From Nitrososphaeraceae archaeon (lineage in GTDB: Archaea > Thermoproteota > Nitrososphaeria > Nitrososphaerales > Nitrososphaeraceae): 16,195 nt of DNA. Position 1 is the stretch's first letter, and each line of letters opens with the position of its first letter. The position numbers and the translations under genes were made by a program. The notes under the pieces were generated by a model. It worked only from the letters and a program-made list of their open reading frames with translations, was not told the DNA's origin and searched no databases. Shown here piece after piece: positions 1 to 16,195 of this stretch. The stretch spans positions 1 through 16,195 of the forward strand of contig DATGZA010000093.1 of the NCBI GenBank assembly GCA_035297365.1, read 5' to 3'.

Positions 1-1
1 A

Positions 2-151
2 AGTGATTCAGCATCGGGCAAAATCTTTGATACGAGCATCATAAACGGTGGTGAATACAAAGTGCTAGAGACCGCAGATATCGATCCTGCTAAATATGAC
101 TTTTATTGTTCGGTACATCCCTACATGGTAGGAACTTTAACTGTACAATAG
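2..151 (+). CDS. C-terminal fragment of a cupredoxin/plastocyanin-like blue (type 1) copper protein; 5' truncated by the window edge
   Basis: Manual translation of frame 2 (not in the ORF track): SDSASGKIFDTSIINGGEYKVLETADIDPAKYDFYCSVHPYMVGTLTVQ*, with TAG at 149-151. YxFYCxxHPxMxGxLxV is the type 1 copper Cys/His/Met loop. Lying just upstream of ctaA fits the end of the AOA heme-copper oxidase cluster. Confidence 0.9.
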   Translation, partial: SDSASGKIFDTSIINGGEYKVLETADIDPAKYDFYCSVHPYMVGTLTVQ

Positions 152-208
152 AAGAAAGCAAACAATCATTTGGAGAAAAGAAATAATCAGCAGCATTTGA
201 CAGAAACA

Positions 209-673
209 ATGCTTCTAAAAATTCTATCTTTTTCTACTCTTTCTATTCTTTTTACACTCATTTTTATAGGTGGCTATGTTAGCGCGTCGGGTGTGGGTCT
301 ATCATGTCCTGACTGGCCTTTATGTCCAGCTGGATTGGCGCCACATGAAGATTTCATCATAGAATATTTTCACCGAACTATTGCAGCAATTACTGGAATT
401 ATGGTTATTATTACAATGATCTTTACTTTGAAATCTAAACAAACTCCAAAAGGAATGAAAATTGCTTCCATAATATCCGGTTCCGCAGTAGTTAGCCAGA
501 TCACATTAGGAGCCATTGTGATTATAGAACGCCTTCATGCTCATCTTGTCACTCTGCATCTTGGTATAGGCATCGTTTTGTATACAATGACTATCCTAGT
601 TACGTTGTATGCCTGGAAAATAAAGGGAAAAGAGAAACCATCTGTCTCTGAGATAGAGAAACATACAATATAA
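209..673 (+). CDS. ctaA: Short (4-TM, single-module) heme A synthase, COX15/CtaA family, copy 1
   Basis: Motifs GGYVSASGVGLSCPDWPLC, EYFHR, QITLGA and TLHL, with four hydrophobic helices. ATG 209 is preferred over TTG 170 in the same frame. Confidence 0.88.
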   Translation: MLLKILSFSTLSILFTLIFIGGYVSASGVGLSCPDWPLCPAGLAPHEDFIIEYFHRTIAAITGIMVIITMIFTLKSKQTPKGMKIASIISGSAVVSQITLGAIVIIERLHAHLVTLHLGIGIVLYTMTILVTLYAWKIKGKEKPSVSEIEKHTI

Positions 674-710
674 TAATAAATGCAAATAATATAATTAATT
701 CAACCCATCA

Positions 711-742
711 ACGAGATAATATTAACGACGAGATAATATTAA
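711..742. repeat. Perfect 15-bp direct repeat ACGAGATAATATTAA x2 (17-bp period)
   Basis: Copies at 711-725 and 728-742, separated by CG, between convergent genes. Confidence 0.9.
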
Positions 743-743
743 A

Positions 744-780
744 TTTGATTATTTTTTTTTATTTTTCTTTTTCTTTTCCC
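744..780 (+). terminator. Oligo-T tract, probable archaeal terminator for the cupredoxin-ctaA transcript
   Basis: T-rich run (ttattttttttttatttttctttttcttttccc) downstream of ctaA. Archaeal intrinsic termination uses oligo-T tracts. Confidence 0.5.
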
Positions 781-1338
781 TTAGCTCTGATTTTCAGCAA
801 TTCTTCTCTTCCTGTCTCTTCTATTTTTAAAATAGATTACTGATATTATTGTGAAGGGGGTTACACTTGCAAAGCTTATCAAAGAGTAGAAAATATAACC
901 AAAAGGATTAAGCGTACTTATATTGAACGTATATGTTAGAGTCTTGCCAGAATAATACAGATCCTGTAAATCTATGTAGAAAACATAATTGCCAGGTTCT
1001 AGAAATTTGTAATTAAACTCATAATGACCATTTGTTACCACTATCGGAGGCAATTTATAAATCTCTTCACCGTTTTTAGTTACGGTAATAGAAATAGGAA
1101 CATCTGATAATTCAACTTCATCACTTGATATTCTTAGTAGTATTTTTGAATATTGACCGGTAGTTGGAATTTCTGGATCGGTTGCTATTTGCACATAATA
1201 TTTTCCAATTCTTTGTCCTGCTGAATTAAACAAACCGTGAGAATAAGCATCTTTAATTAATAATCCGGAAGAAAATAGTACAAGACAACTAAAAACACCA
1301 AACATTATAAAAAAAGTAAACATTCTAGACACTCTCAT
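781..1338 (-). CDS. Exported membrane-anchored protein: signal peptide, beta-sandwich (YtkA/FixH-like) domain, C-terminal TM helix with basic tail
   Basis: Hydrophobic N-terminus ending in DAYS|HGLF; beta-rich body with NGHYEFNYKFLEPGNYVFYIDL; C-terminal hydrophobic segment followed by KNRRDRKRR. Start at ATG 1338 (or 1323) avoids overlap with the SDR gene that the 1482 start would cause. Confidence 0.7.
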   Translation of the reverse strand: MRVSRMFTFFIMFGVFSCLVLFSSGLLIKDAYSHGLFNSAGQRIGKYYVQIATDPEIPTTGQYSKILLRISSDEVELSDVPISITVTKNGEEIYKLPPIVVTNGHYEFNYKFLEPGNYVFYIDLQDLYYSGKTLTYTFNISTLNPFGYIFYSLISFASVTPFTIISVIYFKNRRDRKRRIAENQS

Positions 1339-1399
1339 CTTTGATATTACCTTGGAATTTATAGTTAATATTCCACTCTTAAAGTTACCTATAATATCA

Positions 1400-1413
1400 A
1401 AAAGATTAAAAGT
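1400..1413 (+). promoter_or_regulatory. Putative BRE/TATA element for the SDR gene
   Basis: AAAAGATTAAAAG lies about 25-30 bp upstream of ATG 1437, the spacing expected for a leaderless archaeal transcript. Confidence 0.4.
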
Positions 1414-1436
1414 GTAATACTGTCTGCCAAAATTAT

Positions 1437-3293
1437 ATGGAAGAGTTATCCATAAAAGAATCGTCAAAATTAAAATTTTCAAATAAATTAGTTGTAATCA
1501 CTGGGAGCGGAACAGGTATTGGTCAAGCAATAGCCAAGAAATTTGCAGAAAACGGTGCTAGTATTGTAATAATGGGTAGACGAAGGGAACCATTGGATAA
1601 CACTAGTGAAATGTTAAACAAGATAATAAAAGATAATGGTTCTACTGGAAAAGTACGAGCCTTTTCTGGAGTAGACGTTTCTGAAGAAAATGGAATAAAC
1701 GATATGTTTGAAACTATCAAACAAGAGTTTGGTAAGGTTGATATTATAGTCAATAATGCTGGCGTTTCAGGCCCAGTAAAAACTTTTACTAATGCCTCGT
1801 TTCAGGATTTTAAGGATTGTGTTGCAATTCATTTAACCGGAACTTTTTGGACTTCTGTTCAAGGTCTAAAAGTAATGGAAAAAGGCTCCAAAATAATCAC
1901 AATAGCAACTTTCTTTACAGAAGAGAACAAATATGAACAAAGACCATATAGATTCAGGACCCCATACACAGCTTCACAGGGAGCAAAAAATAGGTTAGCA
2001 GAAACTCTCGCTTGGGAATTAGTAGATAGAGGAATAAAATCCGTAGCTACAAACCCAGGACCTGTGCATTCAGATCGAATTTACAAAACGGTCTATCCAA
2101 AAGCTGCCGCAGAGTTTCTACGTATAGGCGGTTATCCGGGACTGACTTCAACAGAGATAGAGCATTCTGCAACCAGAGGTCTAGAACTTTTAGGTGAATC
2201 CTCTGATGTTTTTTCTGATGGTATAAAAAATATATCTCAAGAAATCTCATCTATGCGTGTTAACGATTTATCTAATACTTCAACAGACAAGTCCAAATCC
2301 AATGTCAATACTAAAGATGTTGATGAATTAAACAAGACGGTTAATGGTATGATAGTCAAGATCCAGGAGATTGCTGAAAAAATACAAACCAATACTAGTA
2401 AAATGATTGTAGATAATGAATTCCTCAGTCAAGAAGACGTAGCAGATATGGTTCTAACTCTGTCTGATGACAAGATCAGTAAATTGATTAACGGAAGGGT
2501 TATTCCAAATGACAGGGTATTTTATCCGGTCAAACCAATTATTGGAACTTCAGTAGATAAAGGTTCTACTGAATCTTTAAAGGATAAGGTTGTAGTAATT
2601 ACAACGACCTCTTCATTAAAACGTGACGTAGAGCGAGTAACAAATCTTGCGAATGAATTGAACAATAATGGGGTAAAACAGGTCATAATATTGACAAACA
2701 ATCCAGCAGATTTAGAACATTACAAAACTTATCACAGTCATTCAATAGATCTTTCTGATGAAGAAAAGGTAAAAAGGATATTTAATACCGCAAAGACAAA
2801 ATACGACAATATTGATGCAGTTATTCATATAACTGGAGATTATGATTATAATAGAAATTTCACATCATTATCAAGAAATGAATGGGAAGATCTAGTCAAT
2901 ACTTTTATCCATATTCCTGGTCTTGTCACTAGAGAAGCAGTTAGATCTATGGCACCTGAAGGAGCAATCTTTGAACCTTCTAAATTCAAAGAGTCCGAGG
3001 GAACAATCGTGATACTAGGACCAGATTCTCCGACTGGAAAAAAAATATCTGGACTTGTTAGATCAAGATCAGAAGTTTTTAGAGGTGCGCTTAGACCCTA
3101 TACTGCAACAGTTAATCAAGAACTATCTGATGTTCTCGGTTCAAAAATAAAGTTACATCTTGTATTAGCTGGAAATATTGAGGGGTTAGAACCTGTACTT
3201 TCTAACATAACAAGTTCGGTGCTAAACCTAATTACAGGCTCTGTATTACACCGCAACGAATCAATTTTTTACATCGATGAGGCAAAGATCTAA
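1437..3293 (+). CDS. Tandem-domain short-chain dehydrogenase/reductase resembling the C-terminal half of Chloroflexus-type malonyl-CoA reductase
   Basis: TGSGTGIG, MGRRR (NADP(H)-type), DVS, VNNAG, PYRFRTPYTASQ and PGPVHSDR. A helical insertion is followed by a second degenerate Rossmann domain starting LKDKVVVITT that lacks the glycine motif. SDR call is confident; the function is inferred. Confidence 0.85.
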   Translation: MEELSIKESSKLKFSNKLVVITGSGTGIGQAIAKKFAENGASIVIMGRRREPLDNTSEMLNKIIKDNGSTGKVRAFSGVDVSEENGINDMFETIKQEFGKVDIIVNNAGVSGPVKTFTNASFQDFKDCVAIHLTGTFWTSVQGLKVMEKGSKIITIATFFTEENKYEQRPYRFRTPYTASQGAKNRLAETLAWELVDRGIKSVATNPGPVHSDRIYKTVYPKAAAEFLRIGGYPGLTSTEIEHSATRGLELLGESSDVFSDGIKNISQEISSMRVNDLSNTSTDKSKSNVNTKDVDELNKTVNGMIVKIQEIAEKIQTNTSKMIVDNEFLSQEDVADMVLTLSDDKISKLINGRVIPNDRVFYPVKPIIGTSVDKGSTESLKDKVVVITTTSSLKRDVERVTNLANELNNNGVKQVIILTNNPADLEHYKTYHSHSIDLSDEEKVKRIFNTAKTKYDNIDAVIHITGDYDYNRNFTSLSRNEWEDLVNTFIHIPGLVTREAVRSMAPEGAIFEPSKFKESEGTIVILGPDSPTGKKISGLVRSRSEVFRGALRPYTATVNQELSDVLGSKIKLHLVLAGNIEGLEPVLSNITSSVLNLITGSVLHRNESIFYIDEAKI

Positions 3294-3334
3294 TTCGATT
3301 CATATTTAATTACATGTCAAGTAAATAGGATACA

Positions 3335-3428
3335 AAAAATAAAATAAAATAAAAGAAAATAAAATTTATTTTCTTGCTTATTTGATTGTTTATTTAGCGT
3401 ACAAGAGAGAAAAAGAGAAAAAGAGAAC
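3335..3428. terminator. AT-rich inverted repeat plus purine repeats between convergent genes; probable termination region
   Basis: AAGAAAATAAA (3353-3363) / TTTATTTTCTT (3365-3375) inverted repeat, AAAAT repeats upstream, and AAAAGAGA-type repeats at about 3403-3427 that read as T-tracts on the minus strand. Confidence 0.5.
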
Positions 3429-3462
3429 TAAGATAGATGCAATATAGCCTGAATTGGATTTT

Positions 3463-4179
3463 CTAAATTTTGAGCTCTGGAATAGGCAAGAATTCCTTTC
3501 TTATTTTATCTTCAGCTTCGTATGATGCGTCATGTAATATAGTTGATGCTCTGTCATTTGCTATTTTAAAATTAATTAAATGTCCACCTACCTGTCCTGC
3601 ATTTATCAATACGTCAATCAAAAGATCTGAGATGGTTCTAAGATCAAGCTCTGAAGCTCTGATTTGAGAAAATAACATCGACCTTAGACTTTTTATTACC
3701 GTAATGGAAGGCGTTAATGTTTCAACCAAATCCTTGAAATTTGATACACTATGAATCTGGACCTGCAGTGTATCCAGAACTATTTTCGAGATCACTATAG
3801 CCTTACCTGTCTTTCTTATTTTGTTCACTTCTGAAGAAATTAGAGAAGAATATTGAATGTTATTTTCCTTTATAGAGACAATCAATTTTCTTATTACTTC
3901 TTCGTCTTGAATTTTTAACTCATCAAATATTTTTAGAAGCTTTAATATTTCCTCATGTATTCGATACTGAATTTGATTTATCTTTGGTCTTAAAGGCGTA
4001 TTATATTTTATTAAATGAAGTTCAATGAAATTGGATCTATGATTGTTGACTAGAGTTGAAACATGCTTTCTTTCATGAATGCTATTTGAATTATTTTCCT
4101 TGACAGAATCTTGACAGGTTTCATATTTTGGATTTAAAGAACCATTTTTTGTTGAATTCAACTCGAGATCATTCTGCAT
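3463..4179 (-). CDS. Divergent ESCRT-III/Snf7-like CdvB-family paralog
   Basis: Follows the recalled thaumarchaeal CdvB pattern collinearly: PLRPKI..., D-xx-I-xx-LI, SSEVNKIRK, KIVLDTLQVQI, DLVETLTPSITVIKSLRS, and C-terminal ASTILHDASYEAEDKIRKEFLPIP. Start codon uncertain. Confidence 0.75.
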   Translation of the reverse strand: MQNDLELNSTKNGSLNPKYETCQDSVKENNSNSIHERKHVSTLVNNHRSNFIELHLIKYNTPLRPKINQIQYRIHEEILKLLKIFDELKIQDEEVIRKLIVSIKENNIQYSSLISSEVNKIRKTGKAIVISKIVLDTLQVQIHSVSNFKDLVETLTPSITVIKSLRSMLFSQIRASELDLRTISDLLIDVLINAGQVGGHLINFKIANDRASTILHDASYEAEDKIRKEFLPIPELKI

Positions 4180-4240
4180 CTATCGTAAACCTTCATCCTA
4201 TTACAAAACAATAATTAATACTACTATGTTCAAAATCTGA

Positions 4241-4273
4241 GGTTAACCACGGTAACATCAGTTAGTGGTTACA
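4241..4273. promoter_or_regulatory. Imperfect palindrome in the divergent cdvB-like/trmB intergenic region; candidate operator
   Basis: TAACCAC (4244-4250) pairs with GTGGTTA (4265-4271) and inner TAAC pairs with GTTA; GC-richer than the flanks. Confidence 0.45.
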
Positions 4274-4351
4274 ACATTCGAATTAGCTCAGTATTTTTTT
4301 TAGCTTTGACATAATCTAATTGACAAAGGGATTTTATTTTGAATATCAATC

Positions 4352-5770
4352 ATGGAGATAATCATAATGAATCAGAGATCAAATCATGAAGAAGATTTCT
4401 ATATATATCCTCCTCATGATATCATTACAGGGAAAAGAACTAACAGCGGTAGAAAATACAAGCCAAAAAAATATATGAATGAGACAGCAGATTTCAGGAA
4501 TTCAATAACTTATAACAAAGATAATAACGATGTTGGAAATCTAGAAGAATTCGGTCTCTCTTATTATGAGGCTAAAGCCTATGTTACACTGATTGGTAAG
4601 GGATCTCTTTCCGCCAGTGAAATTGCATACTATTCTCGTTTACCTAGAACGAAAATTTATCTAACGTTAAAGAAATTAGAGAAAAAAGGACTATCGGTCA
4701 TTTCTCAACAAAAACCCTTGATATGTAGTGCAATTAACCCCAAAGAAGCTTTTGAGGAAATTCTTACTCTCCACGAGCAACGTTTAAAAAATATGAGAAA
4801 AGTTATAGATAAATTACAACAATTGAATGAAAAAAGTAATTATATTAAGGGTTTAGAGGAGAAAAGATATTTCATTCTGGACCCAAAATCTACATTTGAA
4901 AGATTAACAGCTTTGATAGAAAACTCCAGAACATCCATAACAGCTATTCTTGACATTTGGGGTTTAAGATTGATATCTAAATGTAGGCAATCGTTAATCA
5001 GGGCAATTAATAAAGGAATCAAAATTCAGTTATTAATCTCTAATCAATGTCTTGGACACGATAATCTTATTTCACTGCCAAATGAAATAATGGTAAAAGT
5101 AGGAAATATTTTTTCGAACATCGTGATAATTGACTCTAATAATATTATTAATATAGATGGGGGAAATGGAAAAGCAGCTCTATTTACGTCAATAGACGTT
5201 CTAGGATTTTCATATATGAAAACATTCGAAGAAGAATGGAACAAAGCTGTTGAAGTACATGGTCTTTCTGACATTGACCCTGTGGTTCAATTAAAAGCTA
5301 TCCGGTTAACTAAATTTATTGAAGAGATGATGTACGATTCTCACTCACAAAATTTGTCCATAGATAATTCTAAACAGGATCTCGACTTTCAAGAAAATAC
5401 AAAAGGTAATGAATTGCAGAAATTTTTTGAATATGGAAATAAAGGATCACAAGTTGGTTCATCTTCTTTATTTATACTGGAGATGATGGGAAAAATGGGA
5501 ATAGATCTCGATCTCAATCAGGATGACTTTTTTAAAATATTGGATTTAGCATTAAATGTATATAATTCCGGAAGTGTAAAATTTGATAAAAATAACGGTA
5601 TTATTACAATATATTCAAAATATAAAAACAAGTCCCTTGTAGTGTGGTCTTTTTTAATATGTTCTTATTTTGAAAACTTGGATTACAAGGTGGAGACTGT
5701 TCCTAAGATTTCTGATGTAGTTGATTTTGATAAAATAGATTCATTTCGAATTAAAATTACAAGATCTTAA
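4352..5770 (+). CDS. TrmB-family transcriptional regulator (winged HTH, coiled coil, PLD-like effector domain, extra C-terminal domain)
   Basis: LEEFGLSYYEAKAYVTLIGKGSLSASEIAYYSRLPRTKIYLTLKKLEKKGL is a canonical TrmB HTH; RAINKGIKIQLL and IVIIDS mark the effector domain. True start may be ATG 4475. Confidence 0.9.
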   Translation: MEIIIMNQRSNHEEDFYIYPPHDIITGKRTNSGRKYKPKKYMNETADFRNSITYNKDNNDVGNLEEFGLSYYEAKAYVTLIGKGSLSASEIAYYSRLPRTKIYLTLKKLEKKGLSVISQQKPLICSAINPKEAFEEILTLHEQRLKNMRKVIDKLQQLNEKSNYIKGLEEKRYFILDPKSTFERLTALIENSRTSITAILDIWGLRLISKCRQSLIRAINKGIKIQLLISNQCLGHDNLISLPNEIMVKVGNIFSNIVIIDSNNIINIDGGNGKAALFTSIDVLGFSYMKTFEEEWNKAVEVHGLSDIDPVVQLKAIRLTKFIEEMMYDSHSQNLSIDNSKQDLDFQENTKGNELQKFFEYGNKGSQVGSSSLFILEMMGKMGIDLDLNQDDFFKILDLALNVYNSGSVKFDKNNGIITIYSKYKNKSLVVWSFLICSYFENLDYKVETVPKISDVVDFDKIDSFRIKITRS

Positions 5771-5799
5771 TTGATAATTAGGAGAGATGTATTTTAAAA

Positions 5800-6678
5800 T
5801 CAATTTTCTGACATTGAATCAAATTTTTTCATGACCTGTGGTAAAATATCTAGTAAATCAGTAGCCATCATGTGGAATCCAACTTTATCATACGCAATCT
5901 CTGCTGCTTTTCCATTAAAATATATCCCACAACATCCAGCATTGAATGAATTCATTTTAGTAAACAATCCGCCGACCAATCCTGCCAAAATATCCCCAGT
6001 TCCTCCTACTGTCATAGCTGATGTAGTCCTCTGAACAACAGCAGTTTGGTCTCCATCAGAAATTATATTGTTCTGTCCCTTTAGAATTATAGTAATTCCG
6101 TATTCTCTAGAAAAACTTTCAACATCCTTAATCTGATCTTCCAATTTATCTTTTAATTCTGTCTCAAAAATTCGAATGTATTCTCCTCCATGTGGTGTAA
6201 TAATACTTTTGGTATTTGCAATTATGGGTAATATTTCTGGAATTAATGCAGATGCATCTAATACCAATTTTGTTCCATTTCCAAGTAATTTTTTTACCAG
6301 CATCGTTATCGCCTCTTTCTTGGCAATATTCAATCCCATTCCAATTGCCGCAGAATCAACCTTTTTTGGCATAGTTTTGATTAGTCTTGATACTGTACCT
6401 ACAGTCAATCTTTCATCCGATAAAGGTATAACTATTAAATTTGGTGACGCCGCTCTTGTTACACTTACGTTACTTTTAGGAACCGCCGTATATACCAGAT
6501 CAATTCCTGCTCTCAAAGCGGCTATTGATGCCAGTATGGGTGCGCCATGATAAATTCTACTTCCGCCTATTACCAATACAATCCCATTATCTCCTTTCCT
6601 AGATGAGATATTTCTCGCAATGGAATTTTTGTTTATCATCTCCTCTGTTATTGTTACTCGTGAAGGGAATTCCAACAT
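5800..6678 (-). CDS. nnrD: ADP/ATP-dependent NAD(P)HX dehydratase (YjeF C-terminal domain, stand-alone)
   Basis: SRKGDNGIVLVIGGSRIYHGAP, AIGMGL, VLDASAL, IITPHGGE, ILKG and GGTGDILAG. ATG 6678 is preferred over 6744. Confidence 0.93.
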   Translation of the reverse strand: MLEFPSRVTITEEMINKNSIARNISSRKGDNGIVLVIGGSRIYHGAPILASIAALRAGIDLVYTAVPKSNVSVTRAASPNLIVIPLSDERLTVGTVSRLIKTMPKKVDSAAIGMGLNIAKKEAITMLVKKLLGNGTKLVLDASALIPEILPIIANTKSIITPHGGEYIRIFETELKDKLEDQIKDVESFSREYGITIILKGQNNIISDGDQTAVVQRTTSAMTVGGTGDILAGLVGGLFTKMNSFNAGCCGIYFNGKAAEIAYDKVGFHMMATDLLDILPQVMKKFDSMSEN

Positions 6679-6805
6679 TAAATAGAAAAAACTTTGATTC
6701 AATAAACTTTCCTCTATCTTAAAACCCGATCTCTTGGTGTTCAAACGAGATTAAACAACTCGGAACATTTAAAGAAAGAGAGTATATCATATCATTTTGT
6801 TAGAA

Positions 6806-7741
6806 ATGATTTCCTACTCAAAACCCATCGATGTAGTTTATTCCAAAAAAAAATTGCCATCTTTACAATCTCCTTCTCTCATTTGTGGTTTACCGGGTAC
6901 GGGGTTTGTAGGCAAGGTAGCCATAGATTATTTAATTAAAGAACTTGGTGCTGTACATTTAGCTGATATCTATTCTACTTTCTTCTCTCCCCAAATAATA
7001 ATAAAACAAGACGGGACCACCGAGATAGTTAAGAATAGTGTTTATTATGTAAAAAGAGAGAATAAAAAAAGTAAAAACACCACAATCAAGACACAACCAT
7101 TGCAAGATGATGGTCAAGACATTTCAAGTAGTGATATATCGAAGTCTGTCAATATTCTGGATCCTGCGTCATCAGACTTGCTTCTTCTTACTGGAGATTC
7201 TCAACCAATAGTTCCTGGTTCAGAATATGTTTTGACCGAACAGATATTAGATGATATGACAAAATTTGATATTTCTAATATTTATTCTCTAGCTGCATAC
7301 GTAACTGGTGCTTTTACAAACGCTCCGAAAATATATGGCACTGCAACGGCCACTAAATTAGTAGGCTTATTTAGGGATCATAATGTTTCTTCCTTAGATA
7401 ATGGCAATATAACAGGGATGAATGGGATCATAATAGGATTGGGAAAATTACGTGGAATTGATGGCCTCTGTTTGTTGGGTGAAACTTCTGGTTATGTTAT
7501 AGATGCTATCGCAGCTAAAAAAATTCTTGAAACGATAACACGTATATTGAATATTAATATAAACATGGATGAAATTACAAAAAGGGCTAAAGATACCGAA
7601 ATATTAATCAAAAATCTTGAACAACAAATGTTGGCGAAATCTAATCAAGGCGCCCAGGGTTTGGCGGGTGAAGAACGTCAAGATGACGAGAGACAATTTT
7701 TTTCACAAAATAGAAGATCCAATATGGGTTATATCAGCTGA
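6806..7741 (+). CDS. PAC2-family archaeal proteasome assembly chaperone
   Basis: LICGLPGTGFVGKVAIDYLI, LLTGDSQP, GNITGMNG, CLLGETSGYVIDAIAA and C-terminal GYIS. ATG 6806 (TTG 6797 alternative), with TTTAAAG about 35 bp upstream. Confidence 0.9.
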   Translation: MISYSKPIDVVYSKKKLPSLQSPSLICGLPGTGFVGKVAIDYLIKELGAVHLADIYSTFFSPQIIIKQDGTTEIVKNSVYYVKRENKKSKNTTIKTQPLQDDGQDISSSDISKSVNILDPASSDLLLLTGDSQPIVPGSEYVLTEQILDDMTKFDISNIYSLAAYVTGAFTNAPKIYGTATATKLVGLFRDHNVSSLDNGNITGMNGIIIGLGKLRGIDGLCLLGETSGYVIDAIAAKKILETITRILNININMDEITKRAKDTEILIKNLEQQMLAKSNQGAQGLAGEERQDDERQFFSQNRRSNMGYIS

Positions 7742-7878
7742 AAATCTTATTTTTTGCAATATCAAATCTTTTGACCAAATTTTCAAATTAATGTAATTTT
7801 AAAGATATCTTGACTGTTTTTGCTAAATCAAACATCTAGTGAGAAAGAATTTATTAATTATGATTTCTTTTAGTTTTA

Positions 7879-8514
7879 TTGTTGATGTTTGATATTTTTG
7901 GCTTCCGTTTTTTTTCCTTTTTAGTTTCTGCTCTTTTGATTTCACTGTCTGCAATTTTTTTTACAGACGTATATAACGAGATAAAACTAATTTACGGTGA
8001 AGATTCAAATTCTCAGTTTAAAGACAATTCCACCAAATGGATGCCTTATAGCAATGCAAAATTCTCTCTCATGTATCCAGAAAACTGGAAAGTTGAAGAG
8101 AAAATATCAAAATTTCACATATTAGATCTCAACTTGCTTAAAGTGATCGATGGCAATCGTACTTCCTTTATAGGAATTTCCTTTGATACCTTCCCAGATT
8201 CAGATAAATTATCAAATGAACTTGTTCTTGAACAGTCAGAAGATTTTGGAAAATTTGATAGTAACTCTTACTATAGTGTTTATGAAGTTTTAGAAAAAAA
8301 TTTAACCAAATATAAAATAGATGGTAATCCTTCAGCCAGTCATATCGTAAAGTATGTATTTAGAGAAAATAACCTGGATGGTAAACTTCTTGAAATATTT
8401 TCGATCATAGATAAAAAATTGTTTACATTAATATATCAATCCACAGCACAAAATTTTGATAAAGAATTACCGATAATAGACAGGATAATAAGTTCAATAA
8501 AGATAGTGTCTTAA
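7879..8514 (+). CDS. Exported PsbP-like (Mog1p/PsbP fold) protein
   Basis: N-terminal hydrophobic helix; WxxYSNxxFSLMYPENW; KIDGNPS; C-terminal FDKELPIIDRIISSIKI, typical of PsbP-related proteins expanded in Nitrososphaerales. Confidence 0.75.
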   Translation: MLMFDIFGFRFFSFLVSALLISLSAIFFTDVYNEIKLIYGEDSNSQFKDNSTKWMPYSNAKFSLMYPENWKVEEKISKFHILDLNLLKVIDGNRTSFIGISFDTFPDSDKLSNELVLEQSEDFGKFDSNSYYSVYEVLEKNLTKYKIDGNPSASHIVKYVFRENNLDGKLLEIFSIIDKKLFTLIYQSTAQNFDKELPIIDRIISSIKIVS

Positions 8515-8686
8515 TATTATTATTATACTATAGATTTTGGTTAATGTAGTTATATTGGTCTACGTGATCCATTTTATAATATATTAATCAATTTTCTTTT
8601 CTTTTTGATAGTTTATATCTAAATCAATAAGTTAATTTTGCTTATCCAAAAACATAAAGAATGGTTATTGGAATCTTTTTGTGTTT

Positions 8687-11600
8687 ATGGTACTTGAGGC
8701 GCATTTCAATGCTAAACTCATTGAAAGAAAAATTAGGGATCACATGGAACTAATACAATTTAATAAATTTATTAAAAATGAGATAGAAAATCGAAATAAT
8801 CAAAAAGTTCTGGGCTATGTAGACGGACCTCCTACAATGAATGGAGAACCCCACGTAGGACATTTACGCGGAAGAATAATCAAAGACCTTTGGTTTAGGT
8901 TTAATGTATTAAAACAAAATAAAGTCGTTTTTAGACCAGGATGGGATACTCAAGGTTTACCAGTAGAACTTCAGGTTGAAAAAGAATTGGGTTTAACAGG
9001 AAATAAGAGTGATAATATTAATAGAGTTGGTATCGAGAAAATAGTCCAGTCATGTAAATCCTTAGTCAAGAAATATAATGAAAAATGGGTACATGTTGAT
9101 AAACTTCTCGGTATGTCATTTGATTATGAAAGAGGATATTGGACCTATTATGATCAATATATGGAAAGGGAATGGTCATATTTGAAAAAAGCCTGGGATA
9201 ACGGAATTTTGCAAGAAGGGTTTAGAGTTGTTGCATTTTGTCCATCATGTCAGACTTCTCTAAGTAACTCTGAAGTCAATCAGGGATACGATACTGTTGA
9301 AGATCCATCTTTTTACTACAAGGTAAAACTAGTAGATGATGATTCATATCTTATTGTGTGGACTACCATGCCTTTTACTTTAATAACAGATGAGCTAACT
9401 GCGGTTAATCCTGATGCTAATTATGTCTACGTTAAAGTAAATAATGAAGTTTGGATAATTGGTGAAACAAGATTAAACGATTTGATGAAGGAACTACAAA
9501 TTGATAAATTTGAAACTATCAAAATTACACAAGGTAAAAATCTTGATGGAAAATATTACATCCATCCCTTACTGGACCTTATTCCTGGACTAAAAGGTCT
9601 CTCTAATTCCAGATCCATTCACTTTGTCGTGTCTGAAGATTTTGTGGATGTCACTACTGGTAGCGGTATAGTTCATCTTTCACCTGCTAACGGAGAAGAT
9701 GATTTCAACATAGCTAAAAAGAGAAATGTTCCAATATTTGTTCCAATTGATGATAGAGTATTCTTTACCGAAGCTGCAGGTGAGTTTAAGGATCTATTTG
9801 TTCGGGATGCGGATCAAAAAATAATAGATATTATGAATGAATTGGGAGCTGCTGTGAAAATAGGTAGAATAAAACACCAATATCCGACATGTTGGAGATC
9901 ACATCATAAACTTGTATGGCTAGCAAGGAGAGAATACTTTTATATGATTCATAAATTGGGGGATAAACCTTTAGAAGCAGCAACCAACGTAGAGTATTTT
10001 TTTGATGCTCCAAAGAATAGATTTCTTGAAATAATCAAAGAAAAGGTTCCTTGGTGTATTTCAAGAGAACGTATTTGGGGAACGCCTCTTCCAATCTGGA
10101 CCTGTGAAAACTGTGGAGAAAAAGAACTATTATCAACTAAAAAAGAAGTAGTGGATAGGTCGCAGAATCTTTTATTCATGGACAATGACAAGCTAATAAT
10201 CAAGTTTAAGAAACAAAATAAAGAGGATGTAAAGACAGCTAATAGTCAGGATGTTTCAGCTATTGATAAATGTTATTTCGAATTGCATAGGCCTTGGATT
10301 GATAGAGTTGAAATAAATTGTCTTAAATGTGATTCGAGAATGGTTAGAGAACCTTTTGTGCTTGACACTTGGCACAATAGTGGCTCTGCCCCATTTGCAT
10401 CCTTTAGTGATAAAGAGTATAATAATTTGATACCTGCAGTATTTTTGACGGAGGGAATCGACCAAACTAGAGGGTGGTCGTACTCACTGTTAATGCAAAA
10501 TGTTATCCTGAAAAATGCTTCTACGGCACCATTCCAATCTTTTCTCTTTCAAGGTCATATATTGGATGAGAAAGGAAACAAAATGAGTAAAAGTGCGGGA
10601 AATGTTATTGAAGCAGATTTCTTATTAGATCAAAATCCAGTTGATCTAATCAGATTCTATTTTATCTGGAAGTCATCTCCAATTGAAGCATTAAATTTCA
10701 GCCTTAAAGAAATGGCTTCAAGACCATATCAGGTTTTAAGTACATTATATTATTTACATGTATATTTAAAACAAAATAGTGTATTGGATAATTTCGATAG
10801 AAAAACGCATAACCTTGAATGGGCCTTGCAAAATAATCTATTAGAACTACCAGAAAAATGGTTATTTTCCGTATTACAAAAGTTGATTTTGTATGTGAAT
10901 AATTCCTTTAAAAATTGTAGATTTCATGAGGGAACAAAAGCTATAGAAGAATTTATTATAAATGATATCAGCCAAACCTATATCCCACTTACCAGAAATT
11001 ATATCTGGAATGATAGTATCGAAGAAATCAATAGAAGATTAGCAATATTTGCAACATTGGACTATGTTCTTGAAAAGGTTGATGTAATTCTTCATCCTGT
11101 CTCGCCTTTCCTAACAGAATATTTGTATCTAAATTGCTTCACAAATATTCAAAGAGCAAGTATATTACTTTGTAAATGGCCCGAACCACTGAATGATCTG
11201 ATAAACAAGGATCTTGAAAATACTTTCGAAAAAATAAAGGAAATTATCTCTATATCAAATTCTGCAAGAATGAAAGCCAAACTTAAACGCCGTTGGCCTC
11301 TTTCTAATATTGTCATATGTCAATTTCATGAAAAAAATAAATCCACAAATGAACCTATCACACTTGAACAGGAATTTTCAAAAAGCGAAATATCAGAAAT
11401 CTTGAAAAATCAACTTAATGTGGAGACTTTTAAAATAATAGAGATATCTGCAAATAATGAAATTGAAAAGATCCTTGGATTATTAGAAGCAGAAATCCCA
11501 ATTATTCCATCTGTCTCCCTAATTAAAAAAAATATAGCACCGCAAGTCAAATCTGATATTGGTAAGGTAATTGCGAAATTTGAAAAGCTCGATAAAATTG

Positions 11601-12046
11601 AAGTTTTAAAGTCTCTACAAGATTCTAAAAGTTTTAAAATAATTTATGACGATCTTTCATTATCTTCCATTGAAATTTTCAGTCAAGACTTGGAGATATC
11701 ATTTACTCTCAAAGATGGTTACGTAAATGCGGAAAAAGAAAATATTATGGTTTTCATTTCTTCATTTCGAGATCCAGTTCTACTTATCAAGGGTCTCTTG
11801 AGAGATCTGGCTAGAAATCTCCAACAGTTAAGAAAAGAGAAATCATATAATCCGACCGAGATCCTTTCTACTGCCTATGTTGCAAAATTAGATAAGGACG
11901 AAATATCTTCTTTATCACGATTTAAAGATGAGTTAACATATCTAGTTCGAGTCAAATCGTTAATTTTATCTGAACAACAATTAGATAAAATAGAATATAA
12001 AAATATCGATATAGATGGAAAGGAAGTAAGTATTTCAGTTATATGA
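8687..12046 (+). CDS. ileS: Isoleucine--tRNA ligase (archaeal/eukaryote-like type 2)
   Basis: DGPP...PHVGH (HIGH), GWDTQGLPVE, WTTMP and GSGIVH editing motifs, WCISRERIWGTPLP, EGIDQTRGW, KMSKS, and C-terminal RDLARNLQQLRK. Confidence 0.97.
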   Translation: MVLEAHFNAKLIERKIRDHMELIQFNKFIKNEIENRNNQKVLGYVDGPPTMNGEPHVGHLRGRIIKDLWFRFNVLKQNKVVFRPGWDTQGLPVELQVEKELGLTGNKSDNINRVGIEKIVQSCKSLVKKYNEKWVHVDKLLGMSFDYERGYWTYYDQYMEREWSYLKKAWDNGILQEGFRVVAFCPSCQTSLSNSEVNQGYDTVEDPSFYYKVKLVDDDSYLIVWTTMPFTLITDELTAVNPDANYVYVKVNNEVWIIGETRLNDLMKELQIDKFETIKITQGKNLDGKYYIHPLLDLIPGLKGLSNSRSIHFVVSEDFVDVTTGSGIVHLSPANGEDDFNIAKKRNVPIFVPIDDRVFFTEAAGEFKDLFVRDADQKIIDIMNELGAAVKIGRIKHQYPTCWRSHHKLVWLARREYFYMIHKLGDKPLEAATNVEYFFDAPKNRFLEIIKEKVPWCISRERIWGTPLPIWTCENCGEKELLSTKKEVVDRSQNLLFMDNDKLIIKFKKQNKEDVKTANSQDVSAIDKCYFELHRPWIDRVEINCLKCDSRMVREPFVLDTWHNSGSAPFASFSDKEYNNLIPAVFLTEGIDQTRGWSYSLLMQNVILKNASTAPFQSFLFQGHILDEKGNKMSKSAGNVIEADFLLDQNPVDLIRFYFIWKSSPIEALNFSLKEMASRPYQVLSTLYYLHVYLKQNSVLDNFDRKTHNLEWALQNNLLELPEKWLFSVLQKLILYVNNSFKNCRFHEGTKAIEEFIINDISQTYIPLTRNYIWNDSIEEINRRLAIFATLDYVLEKVDVILHPVSPFLTEYLYLNCFTNIQRASILLCKWPEPLNDLINKDLENTFEKIKEIISISNSARMKAKLKRRWPLSNIVICQFHEKNKSTNEPITLEQEFSKSEISEILKNQLNVETFKIIEISANNEIEKILGLLEAEIPIIPSVSLIKKNIAPQVKSDIGKVIAKFEKLDKIEVLKSLQDSKSFKIIYDDLSLSSIEIFSQDLEISFTLKDGYVNAEKENIMVFISSFRDPVLLIKGLLRDLARNLQQLRKEKSYNPTEILSTAYVAKLDKDEISSLSRFKDELTYLVRVKSLILSEQQLDKIEYKNIDIDGKEVSISVI

Positions 12047-12122
12047 TAAAATAATTTTTGTTTACAAACATATTGCATTTGGATAATTCTTGTTTCCGAT
12101 CTTGTACATGTTAAACATTGTA

Positions 12123-13010
12123 TTACCGACACGCTTTGATATATTCATTTGCAATTTTTACATAGTTATTATCTATTTCTGTACCAACAAAGTTTACTCC
12201 AATATCTATACATGCCAGTGCAGTAGAACCTATTCCCATAAATGGATCATAAACAATCATATTTTCTTTTATTCCATGTAATTTAATACATAAATATGGT
12301 AACTTTTTAGGAAATATAGCTGGATGAGGTCTTCTTTCTTGAATTGTATTGTAAGGAATGAACCAATTATTACCTCTATCTCTTCTGTCACTAGTTGCTG
12401 ATTTCCACCTTCCTATGTTTGTCTTGTCTTGATATGTTACACCTATTGCCAATTTGTCAATTGTCAGGTCTCCGTTCTTTGTGAAATGAAAAATATATTC
12501 ATGTAGATCGCTTAAGAATCTCTTGCTTATTATAGGTTTAAAGTGCCCTACGGAGGTATTTTCTTTTAATATATTATTTTTTCCAATGTCATTATCTTCA
12601 AATGAAATTGATTTGATCCAATGAATAGTATTCTGTAGCTTGTATCCCCCATCAATAAATCTTCTTGCGATATCATAGGGCAATAATGGATCTTTTAACG
12701 TACTTCCAACATTTAAAAAGAAAGCTCCATCTTCCTTTAATATGCATTTACTCTTTTCTGCAATTCTTTGTAACCAACCAAGGTAATCATTTTTTTCTCT
12801 CCTGTCATTATATTTTGTATAATATTTATTTATGTTATATGGTGGGGAAGTTACAATAACATCAAATTTAATTTTGTTTTCATCTATTAATTTCTGCATA
12901 AATTTTATACAATCGATATTGTAAATTCTGTTTGTTTTTATCACACCACTTCTTCTTACGTTAGTGGTATATTTTTTCTTGGTTTTTTTCGCTTGGTTAT
13001 GATTTTTCAA
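12123..13010 (-). CDS. Orphan DNA methyltransferase, class beta (N4-cytosine likely, N6-adenine possible)
   Basis: Motif IV VTSPPYN precedes HPAIFP and motif I DPFMGIGST (beta order). SPPY usually indicates m4C. TTG start uncertain. Confidence 0.92.
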   Translation of the reverse strand: MKNHNQAKKTKKKYTTNVRRSGVIKTNRIYNIDCIKFMQKLIDENKIKFDVIVTSPPYNINKYYTKYNDRREKNDYLGWLQRIAEKSKCILKEDGAFFLNVGSTLKDPLLPYDIARRFIDGGYKLQNTIHWIKSISFEDNDIGKNNILKENTSVGHFKPIISKRFLSDLHEYIFHFTKNGDLTIDKLAIGVTYQDKTNIGRWKSATSDRRDRGNNWFIPYNTIQERRPHPAIFPKKLPYLCIKLHGIKENMIVYDPFMGIGSTALACIDIGVNFVGTEIDNNYVKIANEYIKACR

Positions 13011-13095
13011 TATCAGATAAAATGTAAATTTTTATTTTTTGGCAATTTTGTATATTTTAGCAAGGTCTAATAATGGGTAGATGTTTTAAATATGA

Positions 13096-13437
13096 ATGCA
13101 AAAAAACCCAAATTCAAAATTTCATTATCTTAAATACAATAATCTTGACGATATGCTAAAAATAATGTTGGCCGCATCGCAATCTGCAATAGGGATAAAT
13201 TCTTTACTTTATTTTATAAATTATCATAATAAAAATATCATTTTTATATACAATAGTTCTATTGGAAGCAGTTTAATTCATTATACTGTTGTCATGGAAA
13301 AACCTGGGGACAAGTTTATCCAGCTCAATAAGACAAGTGGAAAATATGAATTTGTGGAAGATCTTGGAACAGAATTACATTCTATCTATATTCCTATTTT
13401 GGATCTAGAAACTACAACCCTAGAATTTCCAATTTAA
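13096..13437 (+). CDS. Hypothetical protein (small alpha/beta archaeal protein)
   Basis: 113-aa ATG ORF filling the gap between genes, with globular composition and no motif I can assign. Confidence 0.7.
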   Translation: MQKNPNSKFHYLKYNNLDDMLKIMLAASQSAIGINSLLYFINYHNKNIIFIYNSSIGSSLIHYTVVMEKPGDKFIQLNKTSGKYEFVEDLGTELHSIYIPILDLETTTLEFPI

Positions 13438-13618
13438 TTTAATCACAAAACGTTTCATTTTTAGTAATCGATTTATAAATTTATTTATAAAGATTAGGGA
13501 TGCATTTAGAAAAAAAATATATATTTTTAGACATATATTTTGTATAATCCTGTGAAATCTAAATTTATATCGATCTACCAGTTAATTTGTTGGATTGGAT
13601 GAATCGATGATAATATAA

Positions 13619-13628
13619 TTTTATAAAT
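13619..13628 (+). promoter_or_regulatory. TATA box (TTTATAAA)
   Basis: Consensus archaeal TATA 20-29 bp upstream of ATG 13647/13656. Confidence 0.5.
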
Positions 13629-13646
13629 ACGTGAGTATCATAGCAT

Positions 13647-14435
13647 ATGCTGATCATGACATATTCAAATTATATTGAATCGTTATTGAGCTACAAGAAA
13701 GAGGATCTTACTTTAGACCAGCGTGCTTTTCTTTTAAAACTTGTAAGCGGACATGATCAATCTTTCAAAATTAAATCATATCTAAGACTACGTAATCCGC
13801 CATCTGACACAAAGGACCCTACATCTATTATATCACAATATCTCGAAGATATTGGGTTTCTAGAAATTAGCAAGGGGAAATTCTTGAGTAGTTCCAAAAG
13901 CTTTCGATTTAGAACTAATGGTTTATTCTATATCTTTCTAAATATTTCTATATATCCTCCACAATTCTTAATCAAATATCAAGACGATATTATTTTACAA
14001 ACTCTTGTTTATCAATTCTTTCAAGAAAAAACTATAAAAATGTCGACAGGTAGATTTTATTCTCAGTTAACTACATATATACAGGAATGTTGCAATCTCA
14101 CTCTTAACGCAATCGATGATGTTAATTCATCAAACAAAGAAGATGATAAAATAAGAATTATTGACCGATTGAAATTTGATTTAGAATGGCTTATCAGGAG
14201 ACTTGCTTTCAAATTATTGATAATGTATAATGAAACTAATTTATTGGCAATTAATACTGGGTTAAAAGATGATGTTAGAGTTACATTATATGAACTGGAA
14301 GCAAAGATGAAAGTAATTTTATCGGGTGATTTAAAATTTATAGATTTAATCGAAAATTTGAATAAAGATTTTTCTGAAGGATACCAAGAAATGATATCGT
14401 TGTATAAAGAGAGTTTGGACTCACAAAAAAAATAA
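13647..14435 (+). CDS. Hypothetical protein, possible N-terminal winged-helix-like region and helical C-terminus
   Basis: 262-aa ORF with an upstream TATA box. ISQYLEDIGFLEI...FRFRTNGLFYI resembles a wHTH recognition helix plus wing (weak). Confidence 0.75.
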   Translation: MLIMTYSNYIESLLSYKKEDLTLDQRAFLLKLVSGHDQSFKIKSYLRLRNPPSDTKDPTSIISQYLEDIGFLEISKGKFLSSSKSFRFRTNGLFYIFLNISIYPPQFLIKYQDDIILQTLVYQFFQEKTIKMSTGRFYSQLTTYIQECCNLTLNAIDDVNSSNKEDDKIRIIDRLKFDLEWLIRRLAFKLLIMYNETNLLAINTGLKDDVRVTLYELEAKMKVILSGDLKFIDLIENLNKDFSEGYQEMISLYKESLDSQKK

Positions 14436-14888
14436 AATATGTATATAACTTTTTGAGATAACCTTCACTGGTCCATTTATTAAGAAATCTCTCTCTCCAT
14501 AATATTTGAAATGATCAATTCAAGATTGTATATATTTTTTTACGGAAATCGAGCTCTTTTACAGGTTAAATTATCTGATAAAATCTTTTGTATTATGCTT
14601 TTAATTTCATCATTCGTAAATATAAAAAATTTAAAGCAGAATCACAAATTATTATATGTTGTTCTAACAATTCCTGTACTTGTCATTTTACTTCAATTAA
14701 GATAAGATAAAATAAATTTGAAAAAATGAAATATATTTTTTGAAATTTTTAAGGATACCTGAAATTTCATACCATTCATATAAACTAATCAGGTTTCCTG
14801 TTCTATCTTAAATTAATAAATTAAGATCTATTTTTGTAATACAAATTACATTCAAAATTGTTAAAGCGTTGGTGTATACGAATAAAAA

Positions 14889-15347
14889 TTATAACTTAAA
14901 CTTATTGTTCTTTCTCTCCTTATACGAGTAAATAAAAGTCAATAACAACATGGCAAATAATACCATTCCAGTAGCCAGATGTCCAGCTACGAGGACGGCG
15001 TGTAGCTCTGAATTTACTACAATCATTCCCATAAAAATCTGTACCAACACGATTAGAGCTGCAATTACTGCTGTTTTTCTAACCGATCTAGCTTTCTTAA
15101 CAGAATATACTGCTGTCGCAATGATAAATCCACTCGTTATTAAAACCAGCATCCTGTGAAAATGCTCAAAGAAATATTTTGAAGATGGAAAATCAAAACC
15201 ATTAGGGCACAAAGGCCAATCAGGACATGAAAGTCCTTGATGAGATGAAGTGATATAAACTCCAATTAACATGATAGAATACGTTAATGATAAGGAGACA
15301 AACGATAACCATACCATTTTTCTTGGTAATTCTCTTTTCTCTTGCAT
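14889..15347 (-). CDS. ctaA: Short (4-TM) heme A synthase, COX15/CtaA family, copy 2
   Basis: GVYITSSHQGLSCPDWPLC, EHFHR, QIFMG and GHLATG; collinear with the protein at 209-673. Confidence 0.88.
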   Translation of the reverse strand: MQEKRELPRKMVWLSFVSLSLTYSIMLIGVYITSSHQGLSCPDWPLCPNGFDFPSSKYFFEHFHRMLVLITSGFIIATAVYSVKKARSVRKTAVIAALIVLVQIFMGMIVVNSELHAVLVAGHLATGMVLFAMLLLTFIYSYKERKNNKFKL

Positions 15348-16155: not shown

Positions 16156-16195
16156 CTTTAAAGTGTTGTTTGCCTGGTATCTATTTAGAAAAATA

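Follow-up and report, generated by a model that had tools for sequence, protein, structure and literature searches.

A Stand-Alone Tandem Short-Chain Dehydrogenase Is a Candidate Malonyl-CoA Reductase of Ammonia-Oxidizing Archaea

Introduction

The 16,195-nucleotide stretch analyzed here (the window; positions 1 to 16,195 of the forward strand of contig DATGZA010000093.1, Nitrososphaeraceae archaeon assembly GCA_035297365.1) carries at 1437..3293 on the plus strand a gene for a tandem short-chain dehydrogenase (SDR), which we consider the best candidate for a missing CO2-fixation step of ammonia-oxidizing archaea (AOA). The step in question is the reduction of malonyl-coenzyme A (malonyl-CoA) to malonate semialdehyde in the thaumarchaeal 3-hydroxypropionate/4-hydroxybutyrate cycle. 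Malonyl-CoA reductase activity has been found in AOA cell extracts, and the gene is described as unidentified in the papers concerned (PMC6038301, PMC6964070). Succinic semialdehyde reductase of Nitrosopumilus maritimus and acryloyl-CoA reductase are also listed as unidentified in one of them, where genome-scale models are said to gap-fill the missing steps of the cycle (PMC6038301). Malonic semialdehyde reductase is a different enzyme, the unrelated iron-type alcohol dehydrogenase (Fe-ADH) Nmar_1110 (PMC4510362). The AOA malonyl-CoA reductase is not among the markers in marker-gene resources of 2026, and a full-text search, which did not cover subscription papers, returned no published gene assignment. 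A sequence-only reading of this DNA, made from the letters alone, had held that the gene was not firmly assigned, and the literature searched, as far as its text was available, describes it so.

A candidate of this kind has been named before. Hallam et al. (2006) tentatively proposed an SDR of Cenarchaeum symbiosum, described as having an N-terminal domain 32% identical to Chloroflexus malonyl-CoA reductase (MCR) and an adjacent extra region (PMC1403158). That SDR is probably the orthologue of the window gene, and the candidate idea is therefore not new. The locus tag Nmar_1608, considered as a possible designation, belongs to a different gene (KEGG K18601).

Results

Domain Architecture of the Window Gene

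The open reading frame (ORF) 1437..3293 begins with ATG and encodes 618 residues plus a stop; unless stated otherwise, features of the gene are given on the plus strand of the window. The ORF, the Pfam matches, the structural model and the fold comparison confirm that it is a real gene for a tandem SDR and place the whole of it in the MCR superfamily. Pfam assigns adh_short to residues 17–213 (E 8e-44) and adh_short_C2 with an E value of 1.6e-40, and none of the best 25 of 239 NCBIfam families reaches its cut-off with the 618-residue protein. In an AlphaFold2 model built from 22 orthologues (predicted local distance difference test, pLDDT, 84.5; predicted template modelling score, pTM, 0.87), the strands and helices of the catalytic Rossmann domain span residues ∼17–231 (1485..2129), and the domain is completed by residues ∼313–365 (2373..2531), a return segment with the conserved motifs AEKIQ.NT..MI and DRVFYP. 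Between the two, after PGPVHSDR (207–214), lies an insertion that is all-helical in the model (213–231, 238–251, 256–281, and 292–325), and the chain rejoins the first Rossmann fold at about residue 355. The lineage-specific part of the insertion, residues 232–312 (2130..2372), is variable according to the orthologue alignment, the model and the profiles. Classical SDRs of ∼250 residues align only 238–256 residues over model positions ∼12–365 (VIA-align), thus the first domain contains ∼100 residues extra. The tip of the insertion (residues ∼275–296; window ∼2259–2324) is a Ser/Asn/Thr/Lys-rich low-complexity segment, which differs in length between orthologues, is absent in many Nitrosopumilaceae-like rows and has low pLDDT at 282–289.

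Residues 385–612 (2589..3272) form a second Rossmann-like domain in the model. This domain is degenerate: neither a Gly-rich motif nor YxxxK is found in it in the 22-orthologue alignment, and Pfam lists no family above the curated cut-off. It bears the conserved Arg-containing motif FRGALRP (residues 548–554; 3078..3098). The sequence-only reading had described an NADP(H)-type SDR domain, a helical insertion of ∼100 residues and a degenerate second SDR, and Pfam, the motifs and the AlphaFold2 model all agree with this description.

Cofactor Site and Active Site

In an alignment of 22 AOA sequences with 48–81% identity to the window protein, the Gly-rich dinucleotide motif TGSGTGIG (residues 22–29; 1500..1523), the NADP(H)-type signature G47-R48-R49 (1575..1583), D80, NNAG, T158 and the stretch QRPY171-R-F-R174-x-P-Y177-T-x-x-Q181-G-A-K184-N-R-L are invariant (22/22). 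The active-site segment (residues 158–184; 1908..1988) thereby comprises Thr158, a 13-residue loop, Y171/R174/Y177, Gln181 and Lys184. Further along lies the N206-R229 segment NPGPVHSDRIYKTVYPKAAAEFLR (2052..2123); N206-E226 (NPGPVHSDRIYKTVYPKAAAE) is invariant save A225, which is kept in at least 90% of rows, and R229 is also invariant.

Residue roles were assigned by aligning the window protein to MCR chains and then reading off the roles reported for Roseiflexus MCR (PMC10470521). In SDR3 of that enzyme, S593, R616 and D651 are NADP ligands, with R616 contacting the 2′-phosphate; S731 is the catalytic Ser; Y743, R746 and Y749 hold the malonate carboxylate; and K753 is the catalytic Lys, the Ala mutant of which is inactive. 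According to the same paper, the conserved residue R785 has been found indispensable for CoA binding by the Porphyrobacter enzyme, its mutation lowers activity, and the malonate semialdehyde carboxylate is bound by YxxRxxY in the N-terminal half of MCR (PMC10470521). S24, R48 and D80 of the window protein align with S593, R616 and D651, and the first domain looks NADP(H)-type because R48 coincides with the 2′-phosphate-binding R616. T158 aligns with S731; Y171, R174 and Y177, the malonate-binding YxxRxxY motif that is invariant in 22/22 orthologues, align with Y743, R746 and Y749; and R214 aligns with R785 as well as with R773 of Chloroflexus MCR. Eight of the nine functional residues mapped from Roseiflexus SDR3 are kept or conservatively replaced and invariant in all 22 orthologues, the exception being K753. 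The canonical Lys position is not conserved, since Gln181 is found there and the invariant Lys184 sits at +7 from Tyr177, three residues past it.

Comparison with the Two Halves of MCR

The best solved sequence relatives of the window protein are the full-length MCRs of Chloroflexus (8hjw, E 4.4e-34) and Roseiflexus (8hi4, E 1.9e-32), and its catalytic domain aligns to both SDR1 and SDR3 of these chains. Among the Foldseek matches listed, ranks 1–24 are all MCR structures (E down to 1.2e-24) and the next two-domain match is much weaker (2et6, TMq 0.52), while the first 20 VIA-align rows are likewise all MCR (Z 32.5–35.4, root-mean-square deviation [rmsd] 2.8–3.6, 486–520 residues aligned). As judged from the predicted model, the MCR halves are the only whole-length structural relatives among the matches listed, and the expectation that MCR structures rather than unrelated SDR fusions would come first was borne out by both programs.

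None of Foldseek, VIA-align, the global profile alignment and the tree described below separates the N-terminal half (MCR-N) from the C-terminal half (MCR-C). The best MCR-N chain in VIA-align is 8hi6 (Z 35.4, rmsd 3.0, 489 residues aligned) and the best MCR-C chain is 8j2b (Z 35.0, rmsd 3.1, 516 aligned). Global profile alignment against a canonical set of 18 cluster representatives (1102–1279 residues, picked by length and two motifs) scored 303.6 over 498 columns for MCR-N and 282.0 over 566 columns for MCR-C, and hmmsearch against PDB chains gave 74.2 (Chloroflexus) and 72.9 bits (Roseiflexus) for MCR-N and 85.0 and 82.8 bits, respectively, for MCR-C. The best profile match of the second domain is SDR4 of MCR-C, in the homologous position (E 6.5e-10, 208 columns); in the profile comparison with MCR-N, SDR2 is not its best match. 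FRGALRP aligns with the “sLr.LTAT” segment of SDR4, where R553 meets a partly conserved Arg/His position. When the C-terminal 399 residues were compared with PDB sequences, weak generic SDR matches were obtained (best E 9.5e-05) with no MCR among the 18 rows at E ≤ 10, and in a search of PDB with the profile of the orthologue alignment (A1) the catalytic domain alone was aligned.

The MCR-C halves of Chloroflexus aurantiacus, Roseiflexus castenholzii and Porphyrobacter (8j2b, 8a30, 8hi5, 6k8s) share with the window protein the fold of a catalytic SDR in tandem with a pseudo-SDR (Z 34–35, 486–520 residues aligned), the NADP ligands, YxxRxxY, the Arg of PGPVxxxR, a long loop (12 versus 13 residues), an insertion in the corresponding place, and a second domain for which SDR4 is the match. 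In contrast, identity is only ∼19%, and the window protein is a stand-alone protein of 618 residues in a separate clade, with Thr for Ser, Gln at the catalytic Lys position and Lys three residues later; moreover, the extra domain that follows PGPVxxxR in MCR-C is ∼150 residues long and bears R799, K807 and K919, whereas the window insertion has ∼100 residues, and R1164 of SDR4 reaches the CoA pyrophosphate in Roseiflexus. The MCR-N halves (8hi6, 8aew, 6k8v; Z 33.6–35.4, 489–493 residues aligned) resemble the window protein in their higher catalytic-domain profile score, Thr at the catalytic position, SxRIY and YxxRxxY, but have a classical Thr-Tyr-Lys triad, a 7-residue loop and no large insertion.

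The sequence-only reading had called the protein MCR-C-like and collinear throughout with the Chloroflexus C half. The segments that it cited, GCDVSSE, FGTVDYLINNAGIAG, SYFGGE...PYPNRADY and PGPVEGDR, are present in the alignment to 8hjw_A, while the later ones (ARKVR, LSEA.F, LHAFTAT) are seen on a Chloroflexus-like homologue, P0179, in the 566-column profile alignment. The collinearity is real but not specific, as MCR-N is just as collinear (498 columns, with the higher profile score). Altogether, “MCR-like” is firmly supported. “MCR-C-like” is supported only in part, because the N and C halves match equally well (Z 35.4 versus 35.0): the MCR fold, the C-like long loop and the match of the second domain to SDR4 stand, whereas the protein is equidistant from the two halves and forms its own clade, has Gln181 at the canonical Lys position, and carries an insertion whose sequence does not resemble that of the MCR-C extra domain.

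A Third Lineage with Bacterial Fusion Proteins

A search of 1.84 billion representatives yielded 53 proteins at E ≤ 1e-30, mostly fragments of this family. In a motif scan, MCR N halves showed Y[YF]GR..Y..PK and C halves Y[PTS]NR.DYA.SK, and a set of bacterial proteins showed Y..R..YT.[AS]Q..K, as does the AOA protein. The window protein is a stand-alone member of this previously undescribed lineage, here named Q-type, which appears to be the third of the MCR tandem-SDR superfamily. A quick maximum-likelihood tree was calculated for 73 catalytic domains with Shimodaira-Hasegawa-like approximate likelihood ratio test (SH-aLRT) supports; it used 11 AOA rows, every other row of the 22 having been dropped, and left out all modules that do not fit Y..R..Y...[QK], such as the Q-like module of P0125, the P0126 SDR at 3751–3970, the second modules of P0147 and P0150, and the P0172 module at 3199–3413. 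Four clades were obtained: canonical N (100), canonical C (100), K-type partners (97; see below) and Q-type with all AOA rows (95). The last of these also contains Q-type/K-type proteins from metagenome-assembled genomes of Acidobacteriota (P0145, P0147, P0150; loci L029–L039; SH-aLRT 95), and the larger fusions P0129, P0132, P0126 and P0152 group with it. Bacterial Q-type modules share with the AOA protein Y..R..YT.[AS]Q..K, the long loop and the VYP and FR..L motifs, but in these proteins a second catalytic SDR module is attached, often together with synthetase, reductase and hydratase domains. Our literature searches found no characterized bacterial Q-type/K-type protein.

In every two-module protein in which the motif scan picked up both modules, the Q-type module comes first and a short-loop module that has the classical YxxxK Lys comes second. 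These partner (K-type) modules have Thr at the catalytic Ser/Thr position and also contain YxxRxxY. The Q-then-K order would be the one expected for a two-step malonyl-CoA reductase, reversed with respect to Chloroflexus. In P0132 and P0279, Zn-ADH-type (enoyl) reductase and enoyl-CoA-hydratase domains are located upstream of the SDR modules. At two Acidobacteriota loci, the Q-K gene lies directly downstream, on the same strand, of the gene for a ∼1950-residue protein with ACAS_N, AMP-binding, ADH_zinc_N and ECH domains, which is the domain set of propionyl-CoA synthase. At L035 the upstream gene (70–5892, +) and the Q-K gene (5906–9274, +) are 13 nt apart, and at L033 (upstream gene 8–5929, match 6001–9327) the match begins 72 nt past the upstream stop. 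The gene pairs look like an uncharacterized route from malonyl-CoA to propionyl-CoA. The Q-K protein at both loci has ∼1120 residues, a Q-type tandem SDR being followed by a tandem SDR with a classical triad.

The closest relative outside AOA is a module of the 5572-residue protein P0126 (residues 4734–5328), which is 35% identical over query residues 13–615 (E 2e-97), has the same motifs and the insertion, and comes out in the tree as sister to the AOA clade (support 85). Residues ∼800–2954 of P0126 are collinear with the ∼1950-residue synthetase/reductase/hydratase protein, and one further SDR with a Y..PK signature is found at 3751–3970. A separate search for “longer” homologues, limited to proteins of 1083–3090 residues, returned nine bacterial proteins covering 33–35% of the query.

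We also noted several unusual proteins. P0126, P0152 (6910 residues), P0125 (5945) and P0172 (4553) combine propionyl-CoA-synthase-like modules (ligase, reductase, hydratase) with at least two MCR-type SDR modules. P0151 (1465 residues) has a Q-type module with an AOA-like insertion (∼412–1046) and a C-terminal HATPase_c domain (1317–1421), an odd combination, and its row forms a very long branch in the tree. P0146 (675 residues) is an apparent stand-alone bacterial Q-type protein, the C-terminal third of which is Arg/Pro/Gly-rich and aligns with nothing; this suggests a frameshifted call of a longer Q-K protein and not a true stand-alone form.

The substrate loop was counted from the catalytic Ser/Thr to the first motif Tyr, with the groups set by the residue at the Lys position or the place in the protein and not by loop length. 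The loop measures 7 residues in MCR-N (18/18) and in K-type partner modules (8/8) and 7–9 in classical SDRs (8/8); it measures 12 in MCR-C (18/18), 13–16 in other Q-type modules (10/10) and 13 in the AOA proteins (22/22). The MCR-N arrangement of a Thr165-Tyr178-Lys182 triad with a 7-residue loop is thus not matched by the window protein, in which the Thr and Tyr are present with Gln181 and a 13-residue loop. In the model, the loop (160–171) has low pLDDT.

Distribution, Alternative Enzymes and Genome Context

We searched 401 genomes of the class with the C-terminal 399 residues, a query chosen to avoid generic SDR matches, and identified amoA by PF12942. The gene is present in 309/401 genomes and amoA in 303/401, both including the window genome (G000). 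Five genomes of families f1 or f2 that are positive for both queries (G364, G132, G230, G282, G326) are part of these tallies, and without them the counts are 304/396 and 298/396. With G000 counted, the four amoA-bearing families comprise 316 genomes, 309 of which have the gene: f1 (gene 76/77, amoA 73/77), f2 (218/224, 215/224), f3 (10/10 for both) and f5 (4/4 for both). In the other 16 families the gene is present in none of the 85 genomes, and amoA is also 0/85. The seven negatives within the AOA families are drafts of 90–220 contigs that are 88–97% complete. Five of them were rechecked with the full-length protein: one (f2) has the gene cut by a contig end, three gave generic SDR matches only (∼30% identity), and one gave no match at E ≤ 1e-15. 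The window genome (97% complete) has one full-length copy, and all 20 AOA loci examined have a full-length orthologue of 589–635 residues. Confinement to the amoA-bearing families, and a single copy in the window genome, agree with the profile that the sequence-only reading had predicted. In 13 f1 genomes (G378, G377, G365, G380, G387, G331, G359, G158, G171, G384, G159, G224, G394), one in-frame stop falls inside the genome-search match and the open frames are 597–629 residues long; here the alignment probably overruns a slightly earlier natural C-terminal stop.

The malonyl-CoA/succinyl-CoA reductase of Sulfolobales, for which the same reaction is proposed, belongs to the aspartate-semialdehyde-dehydrogenase family and has an unrelated fold. 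The window genome has two Semialdhyde_dh proteins only, ArgC and Asd, both above cut-offs, and an Asd-like Mcr paralogue beyond these was not found in it, as had been anticipated. Its two aldehyde dehydrogenases look like non-acylating succinic-semialdehyde and pyrroline-5-carboxylate dehydrogenase types. It contains one generic Fe-ADH, the second PF00465 match being glycerol-1-phosphate dehydrogenase, in agreement with the claim of a separate malonic semialdehyde reductase of the Nmar_1110 type (PMC4510362). With the Fe-ADH assigned, no Asd-like paralogue and aldehyde dehydrogenases that look non-acylating, the SDR protein is the only evident acyl-CoA reductase candidate in this genome.

The neighbors of the gene in the window and at the 20 AOA loci are TauE/SafE, a tRNA-intron endonuclease, a PhoU-like protein, homoserine dehydrogenase, a PUA protein, half-size COX15/CtaA, TrmB, NAD(P)HX dehydratase, PAC2 and a DNA methylase. 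RNA contigs with ≥92% likeness to parts of the gene are present in four soil libraries (three studies); such contigs cannot rank expression, and uncovered parts of the window are uninformative.

Elsewhere in the window, heme A synthase (COX15/CtaA) is represented by two separate genes of half size, encoding 167 and 152 residues, at 170–673 (+) and 14889–15347 (−), both matching only positions ∼72–171 of the 322-position Pfam model. A 233-residue ORF at 781–1482 (−), with hydrophobic segments, no Pfam match and a TTG start as listed, runs on the opposite strand into the first 46 nt of the SDR gene, and its true start may lie further in. At 12123–13010 (−) and 13096–14435 (+), within the part of the window that is richest in AT (GC 0.26–0.29), a DNA N6/N4 methylase adjoins two ORFs that match no family; this may be a small mobile or restriction-modification island.

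Discussion

We propose that the window gene encodes an NADPH-dependent, malonate-semialdehyde-forming malonyl-CoA reductase of the thaumarchaeal 3-hydroxypropionate/4-hydroxybutyrate cycle, perhaps with succinyl-CoA as an additional substrate, and we hold this assignment to be somewhat more probable than all the others together. A thioester-reducing step is favored because of the long-loop indel, the bacterial associations and the enzyme context in AOA. The claim of the sequence-only reading that this gene supplies the malonyl-CoA reductase step is hence supported in part: fold, motif, distribution, loop and fusions speak for it, whereas Gln181 and the N-like features speak against it. What was observed is the fold, the motifs, the distribution and the bacterial fusions with their gene neighbors; substrate, direction and the role of every residue are what we infer.

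In the proposed mechanism, NADPH would be held in the first Rossmann domain by TGSGTGIG, S24, R48 and D80, and the free carboxylate of malonyl-CoA would be gripped by Y171, R174 and Y177. Hydride would then be transferred to the thioester carbon, with the oxyanion stabilized by Thr158 and Tyr177, and Lys184, one helix turn past the usual position, might substitute for the canonical Lys at the nicotinamide ribose. The CoA pocket may be formed by the 158–171 loop, the base of the insertion (R214, K217, K222, R229, K308, K315) and the Arg-containing motif carried by the inactive second domain. Malonate semialdehyde, once released, would be reduced by the separate, unrelated Fe-alcohol-dehydrogenase-type enzyme.

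A number of observations weigh against this assignment. The position of the catalytic K753 is taken by Gln181 in all 22 orthologues, so that the Ser731-Tyr749-Lys753 triad of MCR-C is not matched (Thr158, Tyr177 and Gln181 are the aligned residues), and Thr158 and the SDRIY that follows PGPV resemble MCR-N (T165, S213-E-R-I-Y) and not MCR-C. The active site, with its displaced Lys, its Thr and its N-like SDRIY, thus looks like a mosaic. The catalytic domain taken separately scores higher with the MCR-N profile (265.6) than with that of MCR-C (217.2), and in the tree the Q-type clade pairs weakly with MCR-N (SH-aLRT 81), although a constraint joining Q with C is not rejected (delta lnL 1.56, approximately unbiased test p-AU 0.49). 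The Roseiflexus CoA ligands R799, K807, K919 and R1164 have no mapped counterpart in the window protein; by sequence, the insertion matches neither the MCR-C extra domain (profile E 0.35) nor anything else in the two halves, and it cannot be a general CoA-binding element because most bacterial Q-type modules have no counterpart of AOA residues 232–312. That the Q-type module is the thioester-acting one in the bacterial fusions is itself something that we infer. No cycle genes are found in the neighborhoods of the window gene or the 20 AOA loci, expression support is limited to partial RNA contigs, and specialists have had the gene in view for twenty years, since 2006, with no assignment in print, which may point to negative tests that were never published.

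The lack of cycle genes nearby would fit an AOA-specific oxidoreductase outside carbon fixation, for example in lipid, cofactor or compatible-solute synthesis, whose link to amoA reflects lineage and not pathway. The altered active site and the failure of any of the best 25 NCBIfam models to reach its cut-off fit such a role, and the phyletic profile alone is weak evidence, as many genes are AOA-restricted. We nevertheless regard a role of this sort as unlikely, given that the malonate-binding motif is strictly conserved, that three independent bacterial associations connect the lineage with 3-hydroxypropionate-pathway domains, and that the window genome offers no other acyl-CoA reductase candidate.

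We give slightly less credence still to a semialdehyde reductase with an MCR-N-type reaction, most plausibly an NADPH-dependent succinic semialdehyde reductase forming 4-hydroxybutyrate, or else a second malonic semialdehyde reductase. The N-like features listed above (Thr158, S212-D-R-I-Y, the higher catalytic profile score) would be accounted for, MCR-N is no more distant in fold than MCR-C (Z 35.4), and the YxxRxxY of MCR-N binds the malonate semialdehyde carboxylate; furthermore, succinic semialdehyde reductase is listed as unidentified in N. maritimus, and the window genome has one generic Fe-ADH only. However, the YxxxK Lys is missing, the loop is long as in MCR-C and does not have the 7 residues seen in MCR-N and in classical alcohol-forming SDRs, and each two-module fusion examined has a separate short-loop YxxxK module beside the Q-type one. 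Under this assignment, the acyl-CoA-reducing steps would be left with no candidate at all in the window genome.

An enoyl-thioester reductase, the acryloyl-CoA reductase of the cycle, is very improbable: the invariant Tyr-x6-Lys spacing of the orthologues (Y177, K184) is that of FabI/InhA-type enoyl reductases, adh_short_C2 (the enoyl-ACP reductase family) scores nearly as well as adh_short in Pfam, and acryloyl-CoA reductase is among the enzymes listed as unidentified in the accessible literature, but the bacterial fusions and operons already have a Zn-ADH-type enoyl reductase, none is found among the whole-length structural relatives listed, and the invariant Y171/R174 pair would be unexplained, since acryloyl-CoA has no free carboxylate.

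Returning to malonyl-CoA reduction, it is tempting to speculate further that one enzyme fills two gaps of the cycle by reducing both malonyl-CoA and succinyl-CoA with NADPH, as the carboxylase and the dehydratase/hydratase of the cycle each serve twice, and that it represents a third lineage of SDRs acting on thioesters, set apart mechanistically by its displaced Lys, whose bacterial members are reversed-order MCRs and megasynthase-like fusions leading from malonyl-CoA to propionyl-CoA. We consider this extended proposal doubtful as a whole.

Ammonia-oxidizing archaea rank with the most abundant microbes of both oceans and soils. With a specific, single-copy candidate that spans their lineage and has a clear assay, the old question of their malonyl-CoA reductase becomes directly testable. 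If confirmed, the gene would provide a pathway-specific marker for the thaumarchaeal cycle and a compact (618-residue) mesophilic enzyme converting malonyl-CoA to malonate semialdehyde for 3-hydroxypropionate engineering, and it would represent a second evolutionary solution for thioester reduction within the SDR fold.

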